From Escherichia coli (GTDB lineage Bacteria; Pseudomonadota; Gammaproteobacteria; Enterobacterales; Enterobacteriaceae), in the NCBI RefSeq assembly GCF_029227855.1, contig NZ_CP074356.1: DNA of 64,000 nt; one strand, given 5' to 3'. Every line of letters begins with the position of its first letter. The first letter of the stretch is position 1. The notes below the pieces were generated by a model that was not told the origin of the DNA, did not search any database, and saw nothing but the letters and a program-made list of their open reading frames with translations. Made by a program: the position numbers and the translations under genes. Of the stretch, positions 1-383 are shown in pieces.

Positions 1-383
1 CATTATAAATACACAGACGGCCATCTTTTGTAAAATGGATGCCGTTTTAAGTGAGATTCTGATTTTCAAATTGTTCCGGACTGAGACCGCCACACCAACT
101 GTACCATCGCCAGCGATTGTAATCGCACTCGATATAATTAAGTAAGTTTGCTGATTTTGCTGTTTACTGCGACAGATGTAAAGCTGTGGTGATTCATGCA
201 GACTAAGTTCACGGACTCCGGCAGTAACACCGATGCATTCTGCAAGCTTCAGATCTTAACTACGAAATTCATGCGAATGGTGTTTACGTTTTTTTACTGG
301 TTGAAACTGTTTTGTCTTGTGAGTCACCTCTGACTGAGAGTTTACTCACTTAGCCGCGTGTCCACTATTGCTGGGTAAGATCA
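1..383 (-). mobile_element. IS3-family insertion sequence relic, internally deleted (transposase orfB 3' end joined to orfA 5' region); right terminal repeat tgctgggtaagatca ends at 383; left part runs to the window edge
   Basis: Bases 55-140 and 150-383 align, with divergence, to the two ends of the intact IS3 copy at 19408-20665, including the identical terminal 60 bp; no intact transposase ORF. Confidence 0.6.

Follow-up and report, generated by a model that had tools for sequence, protein, structure and literature searches.

The window analyzed here, the whole 64,000-nucleotide stretch of Escherichia coli contig NZ_CP074356.1 (assembly GCF_029227855.1), begins with a short non-IS flank, followed by the remnant of an IS3-type insertion sequence (below, the relic), five bases of IS1F and the left end of the fec module (Table 1). 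Over its first 620 bases it matches many complete E. coli chromosomes without a difference (100% identity); over 8,620 bp it differs from strain 55989 by six mismatches, and SK1144 is colinear with it. An earlier note on this DNA had proposed an internally deleted IS3-family relic upstream of fecI, and alignment of both arms of the element bears this out.

Table 1. Features at the left end of the window, and the intact IS3 copy farther inside it
Feature	Position	Strand	Evidence and remarks
Non-IS left flank, AT-rich spacer	1-29	.	IS3 similarity absent
Degenerate inner part of IS3-type right inverted repeat (IRR)	30-46	-	Alignment stops at IS3 nt 1245 of 1258
orfB (transposase) C-terminus remnant	47-141	-	84% to IS3 nt 1134-1245; RefSeq pseudogene
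Internal deletion joint, four filler bases	142-145	-	TTAC on the element's strand; aligns with neither arm
IS3-type left end: left inverted repeat (IRL) and decayed 5' part of orfA	146-383	-	89% to IS3 nt 1-238
IS1F stub TTACC, last 5 nt of fec-proximal IRL	384-388	.	Comparison of IS1F-fec joints
Left end of fec module	389-624	.	Truncated hairpin, ykiE, Fur-box-like site, then fecI (625-1146)
ykiE, 22-codon gene diverging from fecI	420-488	-	Annotated
Fur-box-like site	562-580		15/19 to GATAATGATAATCATTATC
Intact IS3	19408-20665	-	99.7% to K-12 IS3A; target duplication CAT; same orientation as relic

The Relic Is a Dead, Internally Deleted IS3-Group Element

Elements of the IS3 family (IS3 group) are bounded by terminal inverted repeats of the form 5'-TG...CA-3', generate a 3-bp target site duplication and encode a DDE transposase. 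When the reverse complement of window 1-620 was compared by BLASTN with the annotated K-12 IS3A (1258-bp numbering), two arms of similarity were found. Window 146-380, on the minus strand, corresponds to IS3 nt 4-238 (211/238 identities, 89%, with six gap positions; E 2e-85), and the terminal TGA of the relic's left end, at 381-383, completes the IS3 terminus tgctgggtaagatca; the orfA-proximal end of IS3, terminus included, had indeed been recognized earlier in the last 234 bp of the element. Window 30-141, on the same strand, corresponds to IS3 nt 1134-1245 (94/112, 84%; E 1e-31). These E-values exclude a chance match. The DNA in between, IS3 nt 239-1133, is absent, and the loss of 895 bp agrees with the earlier estimate of about 900 bp of missing transposase sequence. 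The earlier note had also located the 3' end of orfB at 55-140 and found the first 50 bp or so unlike the IS3 terminal repeat. The orfB match stands, with a larger extent, since similarity continues past the stop codon to about position 30 and into the inner IRR; the second statement holds for the missing outer IRR and for positions 1-29, the only part that is non-IS.

Both arms are decayed. On the left, the IRL (about 345-383) is perfect and ends in ...GATCA, and multiple alignment showed that the terminal 66 nt are exactly those of IS3, with about 85% identity from nt 67 inward. What remains of orfA is 173 nt, in which the start codon has changed from ATG to AAG (316-318) and which carries two deletions (of 1 nt and 2 nt), a 3-nt insertion and an in-frame stop (256-258). 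On the right, the last 32 codons of orfB are left, with the TAA stop codon at 47-49; their translation is a match to Pfam rve_2 above the curated cut-off (E 3.9e-7). The outer 13 bp of the IRR (GTGGGTAGGATCA in IS3) are gone, and the DDE catalytic core (rve domain) and the frameshift site of the IS3 family fall inside the lost 895 bp. Where a target duplication would be sought, the IRR end is truncated, and deletion or recombination has put other DNA in place of the former IRL flank. In RefSeq, positions 47-145 carry the annotation of a partial pseudogene (IS3 family transposase) and 145-349 that of a frameshifted pseudogene. By descent the element belongs to the IS3 family, its surviving parts being homologous to K-12 IS3A, as a derivative and not as a functional member. 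We conclude that window 30-383 is a remnant, dead and internally deleted, of a diverged IS3-group insertion sequence. Because the 895 bp, the outer 13 bp of the IRR and the orfA start codon have been lost, it encodes no protein and cannot transpose.

The feature reaches the edge of the window, and this is the sole point in favor of a complete IS that continues upstream of position 1 and was cut there. We regard such an artefact as exceedingly unlikely: the 895-bp gap is internal, away from the edge, and 55989, SK1144, M217 and B4103-1 all have the same non-IS DNA upstream, so that the artefact is refuted by the sequences of near-identical genomes. Extension upstream in such genomes, the check that the earlier note had called for, revealed no complete IS with intact ORFs. 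Window 1-29 runs on into the upstream region of an ariR/ymgB-like gene just outside the window and is contiguous with DNA of strain 55989 (locus L001, 7744-8000); beyond position 1, genomes of the 55989/SK1144 type carry about 290 bp of AT-rich spacer and then this gene (Pfam YmgB). Farther upstream follow, in order, an IS5 fragment, a 3' fragment from a different IS3-family element that includes an inverted repeat of its own, then a phytase-like esterase gene and finally IS66. The same left flank was found beside every copy of the relic that we inspected, both chromosomal and plasmid-borne.

The Relic Derives from a Diverged IS3 Isoform

With IS3 itself (1,258 bp; K-12 IS3A-E, InsE/InsF), the relic shares the order and orientation of its parts and the terminal 66 nt including the IRL; it differs in lacking 895 bp, the outer 13 bp of the IRR and the orfA start, and in carrying frameshifts and a stop. 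Canonical IS3 copies in the compared genomes are 99.6-100% alike, whereas the relic diverges from them by 11-16%, and we therefore assign it to a distinct IS3-group isoform, whose source is apparently extinct or unsampled. Every match of at least 97% in the plasmid collection spans the internal deletion joint, so all copies of the relic share one deletion. The best non-relic match in that collection, on a fragment, reached 91%. IS3-group isoforms on plasmids of Escherichia albertii and E. coli (e.g., NZ_CP117616.1) are about 90-96% identical to IS3; unlike the relic they are full length, and overall they are no closer to it than IS3 is, a full-length variant on an E. albertii plasmid being 86-89% identical to the relic.

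The earlier note had left a choice between a related IS and a chimera. The related IS is upheld, since both arms show 84-89% identity to IS3 and are correctly ordered and oriented. A chimera, in which fragments of different IS3-type copies were joined by rearrangement, is less favored and in our view unlikely. The four joint bases that align with neither arm, the slight difference between the arms in identity to IS3 (89% versus 84%) and the fact that IS3-type mosaics demonstrably form at this locus are all compatible with it; however, once the 66 identical terminal bases are set aside, the left arm agrees with IS3 at about 85%, as does the right arm, the arms keep the same orientation and the correct order, and one deletion is a simpler history than two truncations followed by a fusion. 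As the plasmid collection yielded no intact close progenitor (>91%), the reading of the relic as a single element is based on order, orientation and similar divergence.

One candidate for a full-length progenitor, a near-full-length IS3 pseudogene of strain ECC-1470 (locus L009, 2229-3483), was rejected. Its identity to IS3 falls in the same range of about 90-96% as that of the plasmid isoforms, and overall it is no closer to the relic than they are (86-89%). It resembles the relic at the tip only, over the first ~105 nt, where it has the AAG start and the -1 and -2 deletions; the relic-type tip is followed by sequence like the E. albertii variant and then by canonical IS3. This three-way mosaic points to probably frequent gene conversion among IS3 copies.

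The Window Form Arose by Loss of 833 bp from a Common Arrangement

Genomes with an undeleted form of the locus explain what lies between the relic and fec. A query composed of the relic, the 70 bp that follow it elsewhere and the start of IS1F was searched, at a required coverage of at least 80%, in 5,426 complete E. coli genomes, 1,530 of which (~28%) carry the arrangement. The common order is relic, 70 bp, full IS1F, ykiE and fecIRABCDE. The window type, with the relic adjoining TTACC-fec, is present in about 138 genomes.

Strains M217 and B4103-1 have a relic identical to that of the window (383/383). Their upstream DNA is 99.9% identical to it over 3.4 kb and their fec side (window 382-3000) 99.8-100% identical, and they carry an extra 833 bp between the IRL tip and the fec side, consisting of the 70 bp (CAACACTTTAAAATGCCC...) and IS1F nt 1-763. 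The window form is thus a deletion derivative of relic-70 bp-IS1F-fec from which exactly 833 bp are gone; one endpoint is the IRL tip of the relic and the other lies 5 bp inside the fec-proximal end of IS1F. The IS1F-fec joint reads ...GGCAGCATTACC|GAAATCCCC in K-12, M217, B4103-1 and others, and TTACC matches 5/5 at the exact joint in K-12, M217, B4103-1, CEA601S and ECC-1470. Five bases by themselves would be weak evidence; we identify them as an IS1F stub because undeleted sister genomes carry IS1F at this place. In K-12, too, IS1F meets the fec module at this nucleotide, and the DNA on the other side of IS1F is different.

At the left border of the fec island, the relic is a fixed passenger. 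It makes a handy marker of the commonest border of that island when found with IS1F, and the window type marks a derived lineage without IS1F. We had also considered an origin of the relic block on an IncF plasmid, with entry into the chromosome by recombination, and dropped it because relic-70 bp-IS1F-fec was found in 1,530 chromosomes. A plasmid from Salmonella, 87% identical at the plasmid joint, was uninformative, the assembly being ridden with indels.

The passages on fec context in PMC4951805 and PMC3032704 place fec in the unstable, IS-rich KpLE2 phage-like element, in a context that depends on the strain; they contain no description of the relic, the IS1 stub, the 833-bp deletion or the recurrent joint. 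The relic as such is ordinary, being already annotated and situated at the border of a known IS-rich island, and what our comparison adds is its exact history, together with a minor side observation on how IS3 targets the IS1 end.

The Far Endpoint of the Deletion Is an IS3 Target and Was Probably Used Repeatedly

We constructed a synthetic junction for an IS3 located within IS1, 5 bp from its tip (...GGCAGCATTA|TGATCCTACCC...) and searched for it among the 5,426 complete genomes. The sole match, 88/88, was in strain 1506 (NZ_CP059288.1; locus L016, 2772-4800), in which an intact IS3 sits inside IS1 at another locus; this IS1 is an unrelated copy, 93% identical to IS1F. The nested IS3 is flanked by the target duplication TTA, with GATCA|TTACC as its right joint, and the host IS1 keeps its own intact 9-bp duplication (CGCTTTCCT). 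The far endpoint of the deletion is thus a genuine IS3 target.

Four genomes have an intact IS3 directly against TTACC-fec, and deleted forms could be paired with undeleted relatives. Undeleted CEA601S has the order IS3-70 bp-IS1F-fec; deleted AZ159 agrees with it in left flank and IS3 lineage (3 mismatches in 3,400 bp), and both carry a G-to-C SNP at window 411, 23 bp to the right of the joint. The deleted form GXU-23-25-310 is paired with O153H30, from which it differs by 1 mismatch in 3,400 bp and with which it has SNPs in common at window 429, 451, 501 and 592. O153H30 itself reads IS3|IS1 nt 58-768|fec, a further IRL-anchored loss having removed the 70 bp and IS1 nt 1-57. The window and B4103-1 form the third pair. 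On either side of the joint, every deleted form thus matches its own undeleted relative, which is most simply explained by at least three independent events that ended at the same IS1 nucleotide.

Ends of IS3 were seen repeatedly at this nucleotide of the IS1 IRL, GG|TAA|TG, namely in strain 1506, at window 383/384 and at loci L022, L023 and L005. This suggests that the IS1 end holds a sequence-specific IS3 target, and the repetition points to a target preference of IS3.

Could the 833 bp have been lost without a transposase, by replication slippage or end joining on a 2-bp CA microhomology, the IS tip being hit by chance? Both endpoints contain CA (...GATCA|CAACAC and ...GGCAGCA|TTACC), and microhomology-scarred deletions beside insertion sequences have been described (bioRxiv 10.1101/2023.06.07.543989). 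Yet the same IS1 nucleotide served as endpoint in three backgrounds, one of which lost a different segment (IS1 nt 58-763), and in strain 1506 it also received an IS3 cleanly, with a 3-bp duplication. Microhomology fits poorly, because a 2-bp repeat cannot explain the repeated specificity of the endpoint, and we consider a transposase-independent loss rather unlikely.

Possible Mechanisms of the Deletion

Most likely, the deletion goes back to an IS3-type event aimed at the TAA that forms nt 3-5 of the IS1 IRL, and this event could have taken either of two routes. By route (a), an intact IS3 would have inserted at the IS1 IRL site and then recombined with the IRL arm of the relic somewhere in the terminal 66 bases that the two have in common, so that the intervening DNA was lost. 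By route (b), IS3 transposase supplied in trans would have used the IRL of the relic for a one-ended attack on the IS1 site. We slightly favor route (a), because it involves standard steps only and recombinants between the relic and IS3 are observed. Its expected intermediate, relic-70 bp-IS1F nt 1-766-IS3-TTACC-fec, was not found among the complete E. coli genomes. Route (b) is kept alive by the rarity of nested IS1::IS3 (1 in 5,426) versus three events with an IRL 0.7-0.8 kb away, which favors a local reaction. Comparison of the IS3 alleles of deleted and undeleted pairs did not discriminate between the routes.

If route (b) operated, the relic, one-ended and devoid of transposase, would still be a live substrate. 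IS3 transposase acting in trans would recognize its perfect IRL and, by one-ended, IRL-anchored attack on a sequence-specific hot spot in the IS1 IRL (GG|TAA|TG), would have caused both the 833-bp deletion and, independently, the same joint in other backgrounds. We think this possible but doubtful. If true, it would mean that dead IS ends reshape island borders long after the death of the element. The intact IS3 located 19 kb from the relic is a possible source of transposase in trans, as well as of homology for recombination; it is absent from the otherwise colinear SK1144.

There is a partial precedent. The account of IS629 in bioRxiv 10.1101/2023.06.07.543989, which cites Kusumoto 2011, describes, for this element with the excision enhancer IEE, deletions anchored at IS ends by "sloppy" strand transfer. 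Like the deletion in the window, those of IS629 start precisely from the IS tip and have their second endpoint in DNA close by. They differ from it in that the relic, as anchor, is without a transposase of its own and in that events at the fec border came to a stop at one and the same nucleotide time after time.

The IRL Arm as a Crossover Point with Intact IS3

The right flank of the relic is of three kinds: TTACC-fec, the 70-bp sequence CAACAC..., which occurs in chromosomes and on plasmids such as pMRSN346647_113.1, and a truncated ester-cyclase gene. None of the IS3 copies beside fec has matching 3-bp flanks, and their left flanks are all different. Together with the ECC-1470 mosaic, the three right flanks and the non-matching IS3 flanks mark the IRL arm as a frequent crossover point with intact IS3. 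From the observed mosaics we infer that the relic acts as portable homology with intact IS3, re-assorting the flanks of the fec island. More generally, the repeated joint raises the possibility that dead IS ends are still active in recombination or transposition.

The ester-cyclase (SnoaL-like) gene is truncated by the relic IRL on IncF plasmid pG3X16-2-3 (locus L002, 5346-5771). The last 12 residues of the ester-cyclase annotated on IncF plasmids are read from the IS end.

The Relic Shows No Sign of a Role in fec Expression

Two further roles could be imagined for the relic, namely that it is still mobile as a non-autonomous (MITE-like) element or that it serves as a promoter or regulatory site for ykiE or fecI. 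Mobility might be read from the three different right-hand flanks, but the outer IRR is missing and the left flank is constant in every copy inspected, with change on the IRL side only, and this pattern fits recombination rather than transposition. One promoter-like match lies within the relic on the minus strand (182-154); against a regulatory function, the four promoter-like matches found compare with 2.0 ± 1.5 expected by chance, none in the relic is directed towards fecI, and K-12, which is without the relic, has the same fecI upstream region from window 382 onward (100% identical), Fur-box-like site included. Both roles are very unlikely. Scans of window 1-700 with Rfam and for promoters and terminators found nothing beyond chance, no RNA family and no terminator. 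We assign no regulatory role, because the relic contains no fecI-directed promoter, terminator or RNA family and the K-12 upstream region is identical without it; as far as can be judged from sequence, the relic gives no sign of acting in fec expression. For annotation, 30-383 can be treated as junk DNA that shows no evidence of regulating fecI, and 384-388 as an IS1 stub. The known function of fec is unchanged by these findings.

The fec module itself begins with a hairpin (393-423) that is truncated in E. coli, its left arm having been cut by the IS1F end. On Klebsiella pneumoniae plasmid pPMK1-A the corresponding sequence is the perfect palindrome TTGACATCCTCCCCGCCCTAAAGGGCGGGGAGGATGTCAA, and fec homology begins at window 393; the cut in the hairpin marks the true left limit of the fec module. 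The Fur-box-like site lies 179 bp beyond position 383, in keeping with the distance of about 180 bp given earlier for a Fur box. Two minus-strand promoter-like matches (595-566 and 587-560) overlap this site, and because of this overlap we propose that ykiE may be under iron control shared with fecI. Our search of the literature on ykiE found nothing relevant. A variant allele of ykiE, with SNPs at 429 and 451, marks one fec haplotype.

Taken as a whole, the account of a dead relic, an 833-bp loss, a likely IS3-type event and no visible role in fec is one that we hold with high confidence.

Other IS3-Family Sequences and Genes in the Window

The intact IS3 is inserted at the start of an acuR-like TetR regulator gene. 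Downstream of fecE, at about 10450-14350, IS3-family pseudogenes flank a group of genes made up of capU, virK, a second lpxM and a gene for a polysaccharide deacetylase, a set typical of enteroaggregative E. coli and Shigella virulence plasmids. One of these flanking pseudogenes also harbors, in strain 55989, a group II intron (ltrA), which the window is without. Another IS3-family element is represented by its 3' fragment, of which window 24756-24931 is a second copy (96.6%), with a terminal repeat 95% identical to the IS3 IRL. The same fragment occurs about 0.8 kb upstream of the window start (locus L001, 6981-7189), and an inverted copy of it flanks the IS3 of strain PI12.
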